The position numbers and the translations under genes are program-made. From a virus (taxonomy: Duplodnaviria > Heunggongvirae > Uroviricota > Caudoviricetes): a stretch of 35,802 nt of DNA. Location: IMG/VR virus record IMGVR_UViG_2711768064_000002. One strand, 5' to 3'. The stretch's first letter is position 1. The number at the start of each line of letters is the position of its first letter. The notes below the pieces were generated by a model. That model was not told the DNA's origin. It did no database searches and was given only the letters and a program-made list of their open reading frames with translations. This document shows, piece after piece, positions 1 through 34,440 of the stretch.

Positions 1-318
1 ATGAAAAAGATAGCTGCTATATCATTAATTAGTATTTTTATTGTGTCTGGTTGTGCTGTGCATAATGATGAGACAAGTATCGGTAAATTTGGTCTTGCAT
101 ATAAAAGTAATATTCAGCGTAAACTCGATAACCAATACTACACCGAAGCCGAAGCTTCTTTAGCCAGGGGCAGAATATCTGGTGCAGAAAATATAGTAAA
201 AAATGATGCAGCCCATTTCTGTGTTACTCAGGGCAAAAAAATGCAGATAGTTGACCTGAAGACAGAAGGTGCAGGATTACATGGCGTCGCTCGTCTGACA
301 TTCAAATGTGGAGAGTGA
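1..318 (+). CDS. yegR: Small putative lipoprotein, 105 aa (host flank)
   Basis: ORF with N-terminal signal-like MKKIAAISLISIFIVSGCA, Cys at a lipobox-like position; sits outside attL. Symbol from recalled E. coli K-12 gene order yegQ-cyaR-...-yegR, not verified. Confidence 0.55.
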   Translation: MKKIAAISLISIFIVSGCAVHNDETSIGKFGLAYKSNIQRKLDNQYYTEAEASLARGRISGAENIVKNDAAHFCVTQGKKMQIVDLKTEGAGLHGVARLTFKCGE

Positions 319-475
319 GAATATTTTTTGGTAAGCGTCAAACATGCGCGTTCTGGTTGTGCTTAGCCGGAACCTGTGCGAGCACGATGCCGTTACGTGA
401 AAGGCATCGTGCTATGAAGGGAGATTCTATCGATGTGGTCAATGGAAGACGGTGACCAGGGATAGGGCTTATGCA

Positions 476-503
476 TAAAAAATAGGCCCGTGTAAGGGAG
501 ATT
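476..503. repeat. attL core (taaaaaataGgcccgtgtaagggagatt)
   Basis: Direct repeat of 34269..34296 with one mismatch (485 G vs 34278 A); lies next to the int 3' end. Confidence 0.85.
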
Positions 504-582
504 TAGGGTGTCACCAGTAGGGGCTTTCAACGGTACAATGCGGGTTTGAGCGGCATAAATTACCACTGAAAGCCCTTAAACG

Positions 583-1596
583 TTACTCTACTGTGGACAC
601 TGTGTGGACACTCTCGACCTCAGTACCACCTCTTAGCGGATTAAGAGAAATGGCGTCCTGAAGGTACTCTGGCGCAAAATGAGCGTAAACCATAGTTTGC
701 TCAATCCGCGTGTGACCTAGTATCCGTTGTAGCGTGATAATACTTCCTCCATTAATCATGAAATGAGTGGCAAAGCTGTGCCTTAGTGCATGTGTAGCTT
801 GCCCCATTGGCAAATCCGGTTTTATTGCTTTCATTGTTCGTCTGAAGCGAGGGTAATCAGCATCAGGGAATAAAAAACCTCGTTTGTTATCCGCGATCAT
901 TTTGGCAACAGCCTCTGAGATCGGGACGGTGCGTGGTTTGTTTGTTTTCGTTTTAACAAACGTGACGCGGTTATGGATGATATTTTCTGCTTTCAAACGA
1001 GCTGCTTCTCCCCAACGTGCTCCAGTACTCAGGCAAAGAATCGCAATCTTTTTGTTGTCGCCGTCAAGAGCAGCAAGCAGTAAGGCAATTTCTTCCTGCG
1101 TGAGATAGCCTGTGTCTGGTTTTTCCTCCTTAAGCCTTTTTGTCCCTCTGATAGGGTGCTCACCAAAGAATAACTCCGCTTCAATCAGGGCTGTAAACAT
1201 GCCGCTAATACATGTTAAATCACGATTGATACTCGAAGGTTTAATACCCTGACTTCTTCGGGTGGCGCAGTACTGGCTGATAAGCGATTTCGTAATTTGA
1301 AATGCGCATGGGTCATTCGTTATTTTTGTGAAGATTTCAATTTTCCCAAGATTAGATTTCCCATGCTCTTCGTGTTTACCCTTTAAATCCCACCAGATCT
1401 GTGTCAGCTCCGACAGACGTCGCTTGTCTGTTGGTTTTGATAGCCATTCTTTATTGTGGTGGTTGTACAACGTGTATTTCTCGAAAGCGACAGCTTCGCT
1501 TTTCTTATCAAACTTCCTACGGATGCGTTTTCCATTACGTCCAGTAGGGCGGATGTCCACTTCATATCGACCATCATCGAGTTTTTTGATTGCCAT
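583..1596 (-). CDS. int: Tyrosine integrase (P2 Int-like), 337 aa
   Basis: ORF adjacent to attL; C-terminal catalytic motifs ALRHSFATHF and GHTRIEQTMVYAH (R-HxxR-Y). Confidence 0.93.
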   Translation of the reverse strand: MAIKKLDDGRYEVDIRPTGRNGKRIRRKFDKKSEAVAFEKYTLYNHHNKEWLSKPTDKRRLSELTQIWWDLKGKHEEHGKSNLGKIEIFTKITNDPCAFQITKSLISQYCATRRSQGIKPSSINRDLTCISGMFTALIEAELFFGEHPIRGTKRLKEEKPDTGYLTQEEIALLLAALDGDNKKIAILCLSTGARWGEAARLKAENIIHNRVTFVKTKTNKPRTVPISEAVAKMIADNKRGFLFPDADYPRFRRTMKAIKPDLPMGQATHALRHSFATHFMINGGSIITLQRILGHTRIEQTMVYAHFAPEYLQDAISLNPLRGGTEVESVHTVSTVE

Positions 1597-7592: not shown

Positions 7593-9860
7593 TTGGTTAT
7601 GAATAATAACTCTAAGTTATTAAGCTCTATCTCGGTTGAATCTGATTTCGAGAACCTTATAAAACTATATGCAAATGAGTTATTTGGTGGTGAAACATAT
7701 CTGATCGGTGGTCCTTGGGATAATGGAAAGGATTTGGTAATAAAAAAGGGGAATAGAGAGTTAAAGCAAGCTGTACAAATATCTATTCAAGAGAAAAATA
7801 TTGAAAGTAAGATTGCTCAAGATATTAAAAAAGTGGCGAAATTGGTTGATGATCATTATTACCCGCCTGTATTATATTTTTTTTGGAGTCATTCAATATC
7901 TGAGCATTTATTGGATAAGATAAGAACAAATGCTCTTAAGGAAGATTTGATTAGATTGGAGTTTTATGATGCCAAACGGATCTCTCAAGATATTACAGAT
8001 AAATACCCAGGGTTATTGAATTACTTAATAAAAGATATACATAAGATAAGTTCTAATACTGAAGATGCAATTAACTTGCAACAAAGAGCATTTTATGAAT
8101 ATTTATTGTTAAGCAAAGATAGTGCTAATTTAAAAAATGAAATAATAAAAGCTAGTATTATGTCTAATTTATATGATGGCGGGAAGTCTGCTGATGATAT
8201 TCTAGAGAATCTAAAAGGTGTTAGTCTTACAAAACGTAGTTTACAGGGTAGACTGCAAAACCTAATTCATCAAAATAAAATTAGATTGAATGATGGTATA
8301 TATAGCCTGTCACCAGAGGAAATTAAAAAGCTTGAGAATATAAATCTCCGTGAAATTGTCAGAAAAGAAGAGTTGTTATCAGTAATAAATAATGAGTTGC
8401 CCAGAAATACAAGTAAGAATCTGGCTGTTCAAGTTGTTGATTTAATAATAAAGGCTTATGAAGAATCAATAAATGTCCAATTAACAGAAAGTAAATTTGA
8501 GCCTCCAAAATTACAGATATTCAAAACTATAGTACATAATTTAAAGGTGTTGATACGGCAGGAATATGATTTGGATGATGAGTCTTCGGATGCTTTAGCA
8601 AAAAAGCTAATGGAGTTGGCTGGTCAAAATGACTATTTATCCGAGCATTGCTCTGCTAAATTATGTGTGAATCTTTTAAGTGATCGGAAATTAGAGAAAT
8701 ATATTGAAAATAAAAATTTTTATATCTACTTTGATGCGCCTGTTCTTATTCCATATTTGATAACTCTTATGTTTGGAGATTTTGAGCTTTTTGATAAGTC
8801 GATTAAAAATATAAATTTACTGAGAGAGTGCATAAATCCCCTCAAAAATAAACATCTGAGAGTTTCTAATGAACATTTTGAAGAAACTGCAAGGCACTAC
8901 TCTGAAGCTGAAAAATTAAGTCAGTTTGTAACTGAAGATTTAATTAGTCAACTTGGTGAGTCGAAAAATGTATACTTTAATGTTTATATGCGGTGGAAAA
9001 ACAAACAGCCTAAACGTACAGATTTTTACGATTTTACTTATGCTTTTCTAGGGTTGGATAAAGATGATATTTATGCGGGGTATAAGCATGACACATTTGC
9101 GCAATGCATTCATAATTTACTAGCGTCAGCAAATATTGTTGTAATTGATAATAAAGACTCGGTGTCACAAGACTTTGTATTTAAAATAAAGCAAAAACTT
9201 AAAAGGGATTTGAATTCTTCACGTCCCGTTCGAGCCATAGAAAATGATGTTATATGTGCTGCAACTTTGAGTGATGAAACCCTACATCTTGATTCCAATG
9301 GTTACTTCAGTACTCCCATGCTAATAACACTTGATAGATCTCAATATCTATTGAGAAGCATAGTAAGAAATGAAAGGAGACATGCTGAATGGTTGGTTTA
9401 TACCCCTCAAAGAGCAATTGAACGTCTTTCCTTGGTGGGTTTAAAAATATCATCGGAATCGTTAAAGGATGGTGTTTTAGCAACCATATCAGAAGAATAT
9501 TTCTTTAAAGAAAGTTCCAGTAGTTTGATTGATACTTTGGCTATTATCATTGGAGATAATCAAGCAAGGCAAGGAGATGTTATTAGGCTTGCATCGCTTT
9601 TAAAAAGAAAGGTCAATGAGGAATCTATTGAGAATTCAGAAATTGATATTGAACACTATAATAACATTAGTTATGTGCTTCTTTTCATTCATCGTGAATT
9701 TAAATCTGAATTTTCAAATATAATAAAAATTTTTGCTGAGGATAGTAGGCGAGATAAACTGGTTGAAGTTTTGTTATCCACTATTCAAGGAGTTTTTGAT
9801 GAGAGTAAAAAGGAAATCTTGCGCTCAAATATAGGACGGTTGTTGGCTGAAATGGGATGA
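7593..9860 (+). CDS. Cargo protein of unknown function, 755 aa, AT-rich; possible N-terminal PD-(D/E)xK/Mrr-like nuclease fold
   Basis: Long uninterrupted ORF with Lys/Asn/Ile-rich composition unlike the GC-rich phage backbone. Motif weakly similar to Mrr-type nuclease cores: DNGKDLVIKKGNRELKQAVQISIQEK. Possible Rx4H at RNERRH. Confidence 0.85.
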   Translation: MVMNNNSKLLSSISVESDFENLIKLYANELFGGETYLIGGPWDNGKDLVIKKGNRELKQAVQISIQEKNIESKIAQDIKKVAKLVDDHYYPPVLYFFWSHSISEHLLDKIRTNALKEDLIRLEFYDAKRISQDITDKYPGLLNYLIKDIHKISSNTEDAINLQQRAFYEYLLLSKDSANLKNEIIKASIMSNLYDGGKSADDILENLKGVSLTKRSLQGRLQNLIHQNKIRLNDGIYSLSPEEIKKLENINLREIVRKEELLSVINNELPRNTSKNLAVQVVDLIIKAYEESINVQLTESKFEPPKLQIFKTIVHNLKVLIRQEYDLDDESSDALAKKLMELAGQNDYLSEHCSAKLCVNLLSDRKLEKYIENKNFYIYFDAPVLIPYLITLMFGDFELFDKSIKNINLLRECINPLKNKHLRVSNEHFEETARHYSEAEKLSQFVTEDLISQLGESKNVYFNVYMRWKNKQPKRTDFYDFTYAFLGLDKDDIYAGYKHDTFAQCIHNLLASANIVVIDNKDSVSQDFVFKIKQKLKRDLNSSRPVRAIENDVICAATLSDETLHLDSNGYFSTPMLITLDRSQYLLRSIVRNERRHAEWLVYTPQRAIERLSLVGLKISSESLKDGVLATISEEYFFKESSSSLIDTLAIIIGDNQARQGDVIRLASLLKRKVNEESIENSEIDIEHYNNISYVLLFIHREFKSEFSNIIKIFAEDSRRDKLVEVLLSTIQGVFDESKKEILRSNIGRLLAEMG

Positions 9861-22814: not shown

Positions 22815-24860
22815 ATGAGCACAAAATTCAAAACCGTTATCACCACTGCCGGTGCAGCAAAGCTGGCAGCGGCAACCGCACCGGGAGGGCGGAAGGTCAA
22901 CATTACCACGATGGCCGTCGGGGATGGCGGTGGTAAATTGCCTGTCCCGGATGCCGGACAGACCGGGCTTATCCACGAAGTCTGGCGACATGCGCTGAAC
23001 AAAATCAGCCAGGACAAACGAAACAGTAATTATATTATCGCAGAGCTGGTTATTCCGCCGGAGGTGGGCGGCTTCTGGATGCGTGAGCTTGGCCTGTACG
23101 ATGATGCGGGAACGTTAATTGCCGTGGCGAACATGGCCGAAAGTTATAAGCCAGCTCTTGCCGAAGGCTCAGGGCGTTCGCAGACCTGTCGCATGGTCAT
23201 CATCGTCAGCAGTGTGGCCTCAGTGGAGCTGACCATTGACACCACAACGGTGATGGCGACGCAGGATTACGTTGATGACAAAATTGCAGAGCATGAACAG
23301 TCACGACGTCACCCGGACGCCTCGCTGACCGCAAAAGGTTTTACTCAGTTAAGCAATGCGACCAACAGCACGTCTGAAACACTGGCCGCAACGCCGAAAG
23401 CGGTTAAGGCCGCATATGACCTTGCTAACGAGAAATATACCGCACAGGACGCTACCACAGCGCGAAAAGGTCTTGTCCAGCTAAGTAGTGCGACCAACAG
23501 CATGTCTGAAACGCTCGCCGCAACACCAAAAGCCGTTAAGACGGTAATGGATGAAACGAACAAGAAAGCGCCATTAAACAGCCCTGCACTGACCGGAACG
23601 CCAACGACGCCAACTGCGCGACAGGGAACGAATAATACTCAGATCGCAAACACGGCTTTCGTTATGGCCGCGATTGCCGCCCTTGTAGACTCGTCGCCTG
23701 ACGCACTGAATACGCTGAACGAGCTGGCGGCGGCGCTGGGCAATGACCCGAATTTTGCTACCACCATGACTAATGCGCTTGCGGGTAAGCAACCGAAAGA
23801 TGCCACTTTGACGGCGCTGGCGGGGCTTGCTACTGCGGCAGACAGGTTTCCGTATTTTACGGGGAATGATGTTGCCAGCCTGGCGACCCTGACAAAAGTC
23901 GGGCGGGATATTCTGGCTAAATCGACCGTTGCCGCCGTTATCGAATATCTCGGTTTACAGGAAACGGTAAACAGGGCCGGGAACGCCGTGCAAAAAAATG
24001 GCGATACCTTGTCCGGCGGGCTTACTTTTGAAAACGACTCAATCCTTGCCTGGATTCGAAATACTGACTGGGCAAAGATTGGATTTAAAAATGATGCCGA
24101 CAGCGATACTGATTCATATATGTGGTTTGAAACAGGTGACAACGGCAATGAATATTTCAAATGGAGAAGTCGCCAGAGCACCACAACAAAAGACCTGATG
24201 AATCTTAAATGGGATGCTCTGTATGTTCTTGTTAAAGCCCTTTTCAGTAGTGAAGTAAAAATATCTACAGTCAATGCGCTGAGGATATTTAATTCATCTT
24301 TTGGTGCTATTTTTCGCCGTTCTGAAGAAAACCTGTATATCATTCCTACACGAGAAAATGAGGGTGAAAATGGAGATATTGGGCCATTAAGGCCATTCGG
24401 CATCAACTTAAGAACAGGAGTTGTGTCTGTTGGTAATGGTGCCAGGATTGATGGCGGGCTGGCACTTGGCACGAATAACGCGTTGGGTGGGAACTCTATT
24501 GTTCTTGGTGATAACGACACCGGATTTAAACAAAATGGCGATGGTAATCTGGATGTTTATGCTAATAACGTCCATGTTATGCGCTTTGTTTCCGGAAGCA
24601 TTCAAAGTAATAAGACCATAAATATTACGGGGCGTGTTAATCCCTCGGATTACGGTAACTTTGATTCCCGCTATGTGAGAGATATCAGACTTGGCACACG
24701 TGTTGTCCAGACCATGCAGAAAGGGGTGATGTATGAGAAAGCAGGGCACGTAATTACCGGGCTTGGTATTGTCGGTGAAGTCGATGGTGATGACCCCGCA
24801 GTATTCAGGCCAATACAAAAATACATCAATGGCACATGGTATAACGTCGCACAGGTGTAA
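22815..24860 (+). CDS. H: Tail fiber protein H, 681 aa
   Basis: Conserved N-terminus, internal repeats, AT-richer C-terminal region; position between I and G. Confidence 0.9.
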   Translation: MSTKFKTVITTAGAAKLAAATAPGGRKVNITTMAVGDGGGKLPVPDAGQTGLIHEVWRHALNKISQDKRNSNYIIAELVIPPEVGGFWMRELGLYDDAGTLIAVANMAESYKPALAEGSGRSQTCRMVIIVSSVASVELTIDTTTVMATQDYVDDKIAEHEQSRRHPDASLTAKGFTQLSNATNSTSETLAATPKAVKAAYDLANEKYTAQDATTARKGLVQLSSATNSMSETLAATPKAVKTVMDETNKKAPLNSPALTGTPTTPTARQGTNNTQIANTAFVMAAIAALVDSSPDALNTLNELAAALGNDPNFATTMTNALAGKQPKDATLTALAGLATAADRFPYFTGNDVASLATLTKVGRDILAKSTVAAVIEYLGLQETVNRAGNAVQKNGDTLSGGLTFENDSILAWIRNTDWAKIGFKNDADSDTDSYMWFETGDNGNEYFKWRSRQSTTTKDLMNLKWDALYVLVKALFSSEVKISTVNALRIFNSSFGAIFRRSEENLYIIPTRENEGENGDIGPLRPFGINLRTGVVSVGNGARIDGGLALGTNNALGGNSIVLGDNDTGFKQNGDGNLDVYANNVHVMRFVSGSIQSNKTINITGRVNPSDYGNFDSRYVRDIRLGTRVVQTMQKGVMYEKAGHVITGLGIVGEVDGDDPAVFRPIQKYINGTWYNVAQV

Positions 24861-33949: not shown

Positions 33950-34168
33950 ATGTTTCATTGTCCTTTATGCCAGCATGCCGCACATGCGCGTACAAGCCGC
34001 TATATCACTGACACGACAAAAGAGCGTTATCACCAGTGCCAGAACGTGAATTGCAGCGCCACGTTCATCACTTATGAGTCGGTACAGCGATACATCGTGA
34101 AGCCGGGAGAAGTCCACGCCGTGAGGCCGCACCCGTTGCCGTCAGGGCAGCAAATTATGTGGATGTAA
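33950..34168 (+). CDS. ogr: Ogr late transcription activator (zinc finger), 72 aa; ORF opens at 33887
   Basis: MFHCPLCQHAAHARTSRYITDTTKERYHQCQNVNCSATF: C4 zinc-finger recognised as P2 Ogr. Confidence 0.9.
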   Translation: MFHCPLCQHAAHARTSRYITDTTKERYHQCQNVNCSATFITYESVQRYIVKPGEVHAVRPHPLPSGQQIMWM

Positions 34169-34180
34169 TTACAAACAGAA

Positions 34181-34205
34181 AGCCCCTCAGTCGAGGGGCT
34201 TTTTT
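34181..34205 (+). terminator. Rho-independent terminator after ogr
   Basis: agcccctc-agtc-gaggggct followed by ttttt. Confidence 0.85.
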
Positions 34206-34268
34206 GTCGATGTGGTCAATGTGTGGACGTGACCAGAAATAAATCCTTTTATTTCAATTTGTTGTACG

Positions 34269-34296
34269 TAAAAAATAAGCCCGTGTAAGGGAGATT
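34269..34296. repeat. attR core (taaaaaataAgcccgtgtaagggagatt)
   Basis: Direct repeat of attL; coincides with the 3' end of the sRNA gene. Confidence 0.85.
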
Positions 34297-34356
34297 ACAC
34301 AGGCTAAGGAGGTGGTTCCTGGTACAGCTAGCATTTTATGGGTTATGTTTTTCAGC
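34270..34356 (-). ncRNA. cyaR: CyaR (RyeE) small regulatory RNA, 87 nt
   Basis: Minus strand reads gctgaaaaacataacccataaaatgctagctgtaccaggaaccacctccttagcctgtgtaatctcccttacacgggcttatttttt, matching CyaR as I recall it, including the terminator hairpin and U-tail. Confidence 0.8.
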
Positions 34357-34440
34357 GAAACGGATGATAACCTTAATAAATGCAGCTGTATGTGATCGGT
34401 TTCTAAGAATTTTCCATCCGGGAAAAATAATCGAAATTAA

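Follow-up and report, generated by a model that had tools for sequence, protein, structure and literature searches.

A probable decayed P2-type P arm beside the attachment site at cyaR and the probable origin of the yegR island of Escherichia coli

The DNA analysed here, hereafter the window (the whole stretch of 35,802 nt of the IMG/VR virus record IMGVR_UViG_2711768064_000002), contains a P2-like prophage at the classical P2 site adjoining cyaR, together with bacterial DNA on both sides (Table 1). On the left, yegR and a short intergenic region lead to the attL core, which is followed by the P´ arm of the prophage and then by int. On the right, ogr ends at 34168, the terminator, P arm and IHF site come next (34179-34271), and yegQ (trhP) lies beyond cyaR on the minus strand. 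CyaR was the only Rfam hit in the window. The right end of the prophage is 99.2% identical to phage P2, and the annotations of the P2 record AF063097 (terminator, Int P arm, IHF, Int core, Cox and Int P´ arm) were mapped onto the window. Two further observations concern the prophage and its ends. The attL core (AAAAAATAGGCCC...) and the attR core (AAAAAATAAGCCC...) differ by a single base, at window 485 (G) versus 34278, and the empty-site alleles that we read have A at the base equivalent to 485; a host-allele SNP on the left side of the strand-exchange point, or else a mutation acquired later, could account for the difference. Inside the prophage, 23333-23567 holds a tandem direct repeat of 103-nt units that are 132 nt apart and 75% identical (repeat family D1).

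Table 1. Positions of the features discussed, in window coordinates
Feature	Position	Strand	Remarks
yegR	1..318	+	105-aa predicted lipoprotein; named yegR in matching genomes
First predicted hairpin 3´ of yegR	346..379	+	MFE fold of 319-476; alignable with L091
Perfect 11-bp inverted repeat (agcacgatgcc / ggcatcgtgct), 11-nt loop, without T tract	381..413	+	
GAAGGGAGATT, core-end-like 11-mer of ambiguous status	416..426	+	10/11 versus att core end
Probable decayed P arm (Int arm-type binding region, predicted from homology) of an ancient P2-type attR	430..459	+	
Spacer at the place of the phage IHF site, 16 nt shorter, unrecognisable as an IHF site	460..476	+	
attL core of the present prophage, AAAAAATAGGCCCGTGTAAGGGAGATT	477..503	+	
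P´ arm of the present prophage: Cox-binding region and Int arm repeats	504..617	+	P2 annotation transferred
Two P´-arm Int repeats TGTGGACA of the present prophage	592-599, 603-610	+	
ogr/F-operon rho-independent terminator of the present prophage	34179..34202	+	P2 24265-24288 mapped, 99.2% identity
P-arm Int binding site of the present prophage; intact counterpart of 430-459	34207..34234	+	
P-arm repeats TGTGGTCA and TGTGGACG	34211-34218 and 34222-34229	+	
IHF site in the P arm of the present prophage	34238..34271	+	P2 annotation mapped
attR core AAAAAATAAGCCCGTGTAAGGGAGATT; provides the 3´ half of the cyaR terminator	34270..34296	+	
cyaR (RyeE) sRNA gene; terminator overlaps the att core	34273..34358	-	Rfam RF00112, 100.7 bits, E = 3.5e-19

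A sequence-only reading of this DNA had claimed that a segment of the left flank, between yegR and the attL core, resembles the right-end sequence just past the ogr terminator, and this proved correct with its coordinates within 1 nt. The resemblance consists of two exact copies, 430-444 (TCGATGTGGTCAATG) with 34207-34221 and 452-459 (GTGACCAG) with 34229-34236, separated by 7 nt that are unlike (GAAGACG in the flank versus TGTGGAC in the phage). The 15-mer of 430-444 occurs at these two sites only within the window, and an ungapped register extending over 416-464 and 34193-34241 shows 71% identity (repeat family D5). Local alignment of 319-476 against 34170-34270, with the att core excluded, gave a score of 38, while shuffled sequences gave 14.8 +/- 2.4 and none of 2000 reached 38. 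The distance to the core also matches in the two copies save for a 16-nt shortening of the flank (33777 nt from start to start, versus 33793 for the cores). The phage-like homology to the left of the prophage is therefore real and not a product of chance. The phage partner (34207-34234) is the site annotated in P2 as 'protein_bind Int, P arm' (AF063097 24293-24320), while the P2 IHF site (24324-24357) corresponds to window 34238-34271 and is what the flank lacks.

The arm-type sites bound by Int have the consensus tgTGGaCa (PMC3448106). The first arm repeat of the flank, TGTGGTCA at 434-441, is intact and identical to that of the phage, whereas the position of the second repeat reads GGAAGACG where the phage has TGTGGACG and is degenerate, so that 430-459 does not contain two matches to the consensus about 11 nt apart. 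The distal GTGACCAG is again intact. Past it, the IHF-site region of the phage is replaced in the flank by a shorter, unrelated 17 nt (460-476), which is 16 nt short and gave no alignment to the P2 IHF site; an IHF site with phage-like spacing is thus lacking. In a multi-species alignment with P2-type prophages that occupy cyaR in Citrobacter, Enterobacter, Huaxiibacter and Escherichia, the flank kept the register of their P arms, in the order of T-run remnant, arm repeats and core. As far as can be judged from homology and register, 430-459 would correspond to a decayed P arm that probably extends over about 416-476. In E. coli the first arm repeat has been kept without any change (15/15) while its neighbours decayed, which is slightly unexpected under uniform neutral decay and counts slightly against regarding the block as a fossil.

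Upstream of this block is the perfect 11-bp inverted repeat without a U-tract that the sequence-only reading had described, and we found it as described: 381-391 pairs with 403-413 across the 11-nt loop, and a terminator scan gave no terminator-like site in 1-700. The stem is followed by ATGAAGGGAG, without a T tract, and the hairpin was therefore ruled out as a canonical rho-independent terminator. Its place is roughly that of the ogr/F-operon terminator of P2, though it lies 16 nt upstream of the P-arm remnant, compared with 4 nt between that terminator and the P arm. The stem is kept in the E. coli and Shigella alleles read here (with one G-T pair in TUM2826), with variation in the loop, and alignment showed that the hairpin is absent from L091, a divergent Escherichia lineage whose yegQ is 92% identical to that of E. 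coli. The hairpin may be a decayed terminator of an ancient element or a structure of the yegR 3´ end.

The neighbouring gaagggagatt (416-426) had been called core-end-like, and 10 of its 11 letters do agree with the final 11 nt of the core (11/11 in the TUM2826 allele); that it is a core remnant was not established. At random, 0.49 such 11-mers with at most one mismatch are expected per window, and there is a second one at 7937, so the 11-mer alone is weak evidence. In the 16 nt upstream of it we saw, by eye only, no convincing match to the left part of the 27-nt core. Support for GAAGGGAGATT as a second att core ends at the 11-mer itself. The same 11 nt stand in ungapped register with GAGGGGCTTTT at 34193-34203; their alleles are GAAGGAGGATT in ATCC 8739 and Shigella and TAAGGGAGATT in TUM2826, and they are not alignable in L091. 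The 11-mer may be fortuitous, or a vestige of a core older still, or what decay has left of the 3´ half (descending stem and T run) of an ancient terminator.

The flank is a nearly universal part of the E. coli chromosome. Window 1-503 was found in 5382 of 5426 complete E. coli genomes, and in about 4200 of the 5426 the flank is contiguous with the core and cyaR, that is, the site is empty. Empty sites were counted with a 160-nt flank-core-cyaR probe, taken from an empty site, that had to match over at least 80% of its length at one place; 4203 genomes gave such a match, and in the rows sampled nearly all matches were one contiguous piece. The empty sites of ATCC 8739 and TUM2826 were read directly: the hairpin, the arm-like block and the short spacer abut the core and cyaR. 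Flank matches in the empty-site genomes stop at 503, and one E. coli genome (L124) is 100% identical to window 1-520. This distribution marks the flank as ordinary host DNA and not as a product of the recent history of this strain. The earlier suggestion of a scar of a P2-like integration at the same site thus holds in kind, given the Int P-arm homology and its register, but the scar is neither recent nor specific to this strain or prophage. Against a scar, the same reading had set host DNA at unoccupied sites with no phage homology beyond the core; the flank is indeed present as host DNA at about 4200 empty attB sites, but the phage homology beyond the core persists. We also noted that in some E. 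coli (TUM2826; L003 1825-1994) an AT-rich segment of ~170 nt lies directly 3´ of the yegR stop codon. The same segment, diverged, is present in L091 and is absent from the window (where its site is about 323/324) and from ATCC 8739; it appears to have been deleted in most E. coli.

The arrangement that preceded the flank can be seen in other species. A conserved cyaR segment was used to scan a single genome of each species, which yielded 117 loci; in 56 of the 117 species, 73-135 nt (median 82) separate the att core from the start codon of yegS. Among those with this island-free arrangement is Escherichia sp. E1V33, and its bacterial-side flank (B arm) is clearly homologous to the one adjoining yegS in E. 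coli. In E. coli and L091, yegS and cyaR are parted by an island that carries yegR and measures 796 nt and 1022 nt, respectively. The island has a GC content of 38.8%, versus 49.8% for yegS and 54.4% for yegQ. The window does not reach its yegS end, which we read in other E. coli genomes, L124 among them. At this end L091 has ATAAACCGTCAGTCTGCATAAGAGAGATT exactly at the position of the E1V33 core (anchored z = 5.2, 0/5000 shuffles). The corresponding sequence in E. coli, ATAAAAAGTCAGTTCAAGTATGGAGGATT, is marginal (anchored z = 2.4; 81/5000 shuffles, p about 0.016), and the case for a decayed core there consequently leans on L091 and on the positional coincidence. Immediately past this putative core, E. 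coli has 30 nt, 22 of which agree with the beginning of the phage P´ arm (anchored z = 5.5, 0/5000).

At the other end of the island, L091 retains a part of the P arm that was lost in E. coli, from the IHF site (GTAACCAGAAACAAATCTTTTAATTCAATTGGTTACGTA; score 49, 0/2000 shuffles). In the second arm repeat, E. coli and L091 alike read AAG where the phage has GTG; this favours a single ancient event common to both lineages and separate decay thereafter. L091 is closer to the island-free E1V33 (95% in yegQ) than to E. coli, so that a loss of the island in the E1V33 lineage, or its transfer by homologous recombination, is needed. Collectively, the island shows four of the five characters by which we judged prophage fossils: core repeats at both ends, arm homology inside each of them, an empty orthologous site and an atypical base composition. 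Searches for residual integrase or phage genes in the island found none, as blastn and peptide tblastn against the interior of the P2-like prophage gave no significant match except the P arm. With no integrase or P2 gene in the island, it is by the att arms that the element is identified as P2-type.

The sole gene remaining inside the island is yegR. Its family (PF27694) is tiny and sporadic, and YegR gave no match in our local copy of Pfam. Distant homologues lie in unrelated, partly IS-rich contexts; in Enterobacter sp. BIDMC 29 (L125 6001-6318), a homologue with 51% identity is found beside an MFS transporter gene in an IS-rich region with an omptin gene. Judged from these contexts, yegR would be consistent with a mobile orphan gene, but the homologues give no support for a P2 gene. 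YegR also has a strong PHROG match (phrog_21109), but this match and those from tblastn trace to prophage records that include host flank; they are therefore not independent evidence, and YegR was rejected as phage cargo. When the flank was searched against the phage database, only two matches were obtained, both with host flank, vB_EcoM-720R8 (ON470606.1) and 'Phage TP' (AY639599.1), in which the host DNA comprises gatR-yegS-yegR or yegR-yegQ. No free phage with the hairpin or the remaining intergenic region was found in this search. The listing of yegR as a phage protein family is thus an annotation artefact of 'phage' records that include host DNA.

Taken together, 430-459 is very probably the decayed P arm of an attR left by an ancient P2-type integrating element and fixed in E. 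coli. We suggest that an ancestor of E. coli received, at the 3´ end of its cyaR gene, either a P2-like prophage or some other element whose attP was of the P2 type. Nearly all of this element would then have been lost and a roughly 0.8-kb AT-rich island fixed in the species. Read from yegS, the remaining order would be a decayed core with the start of a P´ arm, AT-rich DNA, yegR, hairpins, the decayed P arm and the intact core, with the decay presumably neutral. The core next to cyaR is likely to have been kept intact by selection on the cyaR terminator, half of which it encodes, and, being intact, would have remained a usable attB for modern P2-like phages. The present prophage would have re-used this ancient core, giving an attL in which the core is flanked by the degenerate old P arm in bacterial DNA and by a new P´ arm in phage DNA.

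Other origins of the homology were weighed against this ancient attR. Similarity by chance, without biological meaning, would suffice for the 11-mer at 416-426 taken alone. For the main block (430-459) chance was refuted, as its score was reached by 0/2000 shuffles, it stands in register relative to the core, and L091 and the left end of the island provide independent support; we give coincidence practically no weight. A recent scar confined to this strain, in which a prior P2-like prophage integrated and was then excised or deleted in its recent ancestry, would fit a homology that directly adjoins the core of the resident prophage, and K-12 is an example of P2 remnants forming at the cyaR locus. 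This reading is refuted by distribution and must be considered very improbable: the block is found in about 99% of complete E. coli genomes and at the empty sites counted above, a diverged form exists in L091, and precise Int-mediated excision does not leave arm sequence behind. The direction of transfer could also be reversed, with P2-type phages having taken their P arm from the E. coli flank, since aberrant excision can move flanking host DNA into a phage genome. There is very little likelihood of this as well. The intact version, with two repeats and an IHF site, sits in the phages; the same P arm is present in cyaR prophages of Citrobacter, Enterobacter, Huaxiibacter and other Escherichia, with ancestral host flanks lacking the arm; and the host copy is itself part of an inserted AT-rich island, which the ancestral arrangement lacks.

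A functional role for the block was weighed as well, and we consider it unlikely. P2 Int might still bind TGTGGTCA at 434-441 in an extended attB, favouring locI or altering attL x attR excision. The first repeat with its flanks, 15/15 identical to the phage amid decayed neighbours, would be explained in this way; seen from the core, the repeat has the side and the orientation expected of an arm site, and P2 prefers locI in E. coli C. Against such a role, the flank has a degenerate second repeat and no IHF site, and its spacing to the core is reduced by 16 nt, so that the P-arm architecture required by P2 is missing, and the 15-nt block is not conserved in L091 (8/15 identity) and carries a substitution in Shigella (TCCATGTGG). 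Moreover, the core alone is classically enough for the attB of a tyrosine integrase (PMC3448106). Should the canonical P2 attB, improbable as we think it, act as a 'pseudo-attR' with a preserved repeat possibly bound by Int, it could add to the strong preference of P2 for locI, an attL with arm-type sites on both sides of the core could change the protein needs or the efficiency of excision, and a host attachment site would have been shaped by, and still be exploiting, an earlier integration. The 'unusually extended att homology' offered by the sequence-only reading is apt as a description, and is accounted for by descent rather than by a demonstrated function.

Read as the remnant of an ancient attR, the block changes how a textbook attachment site is seen: the classical P2 attB, locI at the 3´ end of cyaR, would very probably have originated as the attR of an ancient P2-type element, with yegR, an orphan gene, as what remains inside a P2-type fossil. 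In the literature on yegR, ogrK, CyaR and P2, the original locI sequence papers excepted, we found no paper describing the yegR island in these terms. Homology between a prophage end and the host flank at cyaR is accordingly no evidence of recent tandem integration or imprecise excision. Programs that call prophage boundaries are prone to over-extend P2-like prophages into yegR, and two 'phage' records already contain it. The fossil reveals no new mechanism; it adds a clear example of how integration recurs at the 3´ ends of sRNAs, hot spots where scars gather.

The cyaR 3´ end is such a recurrent hot spot, for several element types. Independent decayed P arms adjoin the core in other genera (L007, L080 and L056), and in 30 species islands of 224-4407 nt part yegS from the core. 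In L011, L024, L084 and L098 the yegS end of the island holds a partial copy of the core, at the place of the ancestral one. These four and L066 are Enterobacteriaceae islands of 1-2.2 kb in which the core copy is identical up to about GTAAGGG and lies 78-93 nt from the yegS start. Nine Enterobacter spp. loci (L010, L042, L065, L067, L068, L073, L095, L108 and L110) have a conserved island of ~633 nt from yegS to the cyaR core, in which an open reading frame appears to reach the core; at the yegS end of this island no copy of the core was seen. The stem of the cyaR terminator also varies among the loci compared (L007-L123), in paired variants: E. coli has CCCGTG...CACAGG and most genera have CCTGCG...CGCAGG. 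A mixed stem, CCTGCG...CACAGG, is seen in Escherichia sp. E1V33 and E. albertii, as expected if a phage with a different core allele supplied the left half of the core.

The closest parallel is the K-12 remnant, a comparison that the sequence-only reading had proposed and that we carried out. In K-12-type strains the flank runs to 494 inside the attL core and is followed by a truncated D gene (yegZ, or D´), ogrK, a complete P arm and the attR core, so that this remnant lies to the right of the same old flank. The deletion joint can be read in the K-12-type genome L002 (2978-3000, equivalent to window 477-494) as ...aagcccgtgta/gcagagttc.... The two scars share the locus and the att core; in K-12 too the attR side is kept and the int side deleted, the core is kept as cyaR terminator, and a decaying P2-type prophage leaves its right end beside cyaR. 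The K-12 remnant, however, is young, with a P arm, terminator and ogr nearly identical to P2, with P2 genes present, and it occurs in some strains only, whereas the old scar is far older, holds no P2 gene, shows 71% identity over 49 nt with a 16-nt deletion, and is found in nearly all E. coli. The old scar lies to the left of the K-12 remnant and K-12 has both; it thus carries two generations of P2-type fossils in tandem, of which the yegZ-ogrK remnant is the second.

Compared with the P arm of P2 attP (AF063097 24293-24357), the old scar is homologous to the Int P-arm footprint, faces the same way on the same side of the core, and has an identical first repeat. It differs in its degenerate second repeat, the missing IHF site and a spacing shorter by 16 nt, and in lying in a host attB/attL rather than a phage attP. 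The yegR island also resembles the islands with degenerate core repeats found at the 3´ ends of tRNA, tmRNA and sRNA genes. Like these, it is AT-rich, carries orphan cargo (yegR) and lies at an sRNA 3´ end, with one intact and one decayed core and with orthologous empty sites. Unlike them, it is only about 0.8 kb long and has no integrase, and remnants of both arms are recognisable, making it assignable to a P2-type attP.
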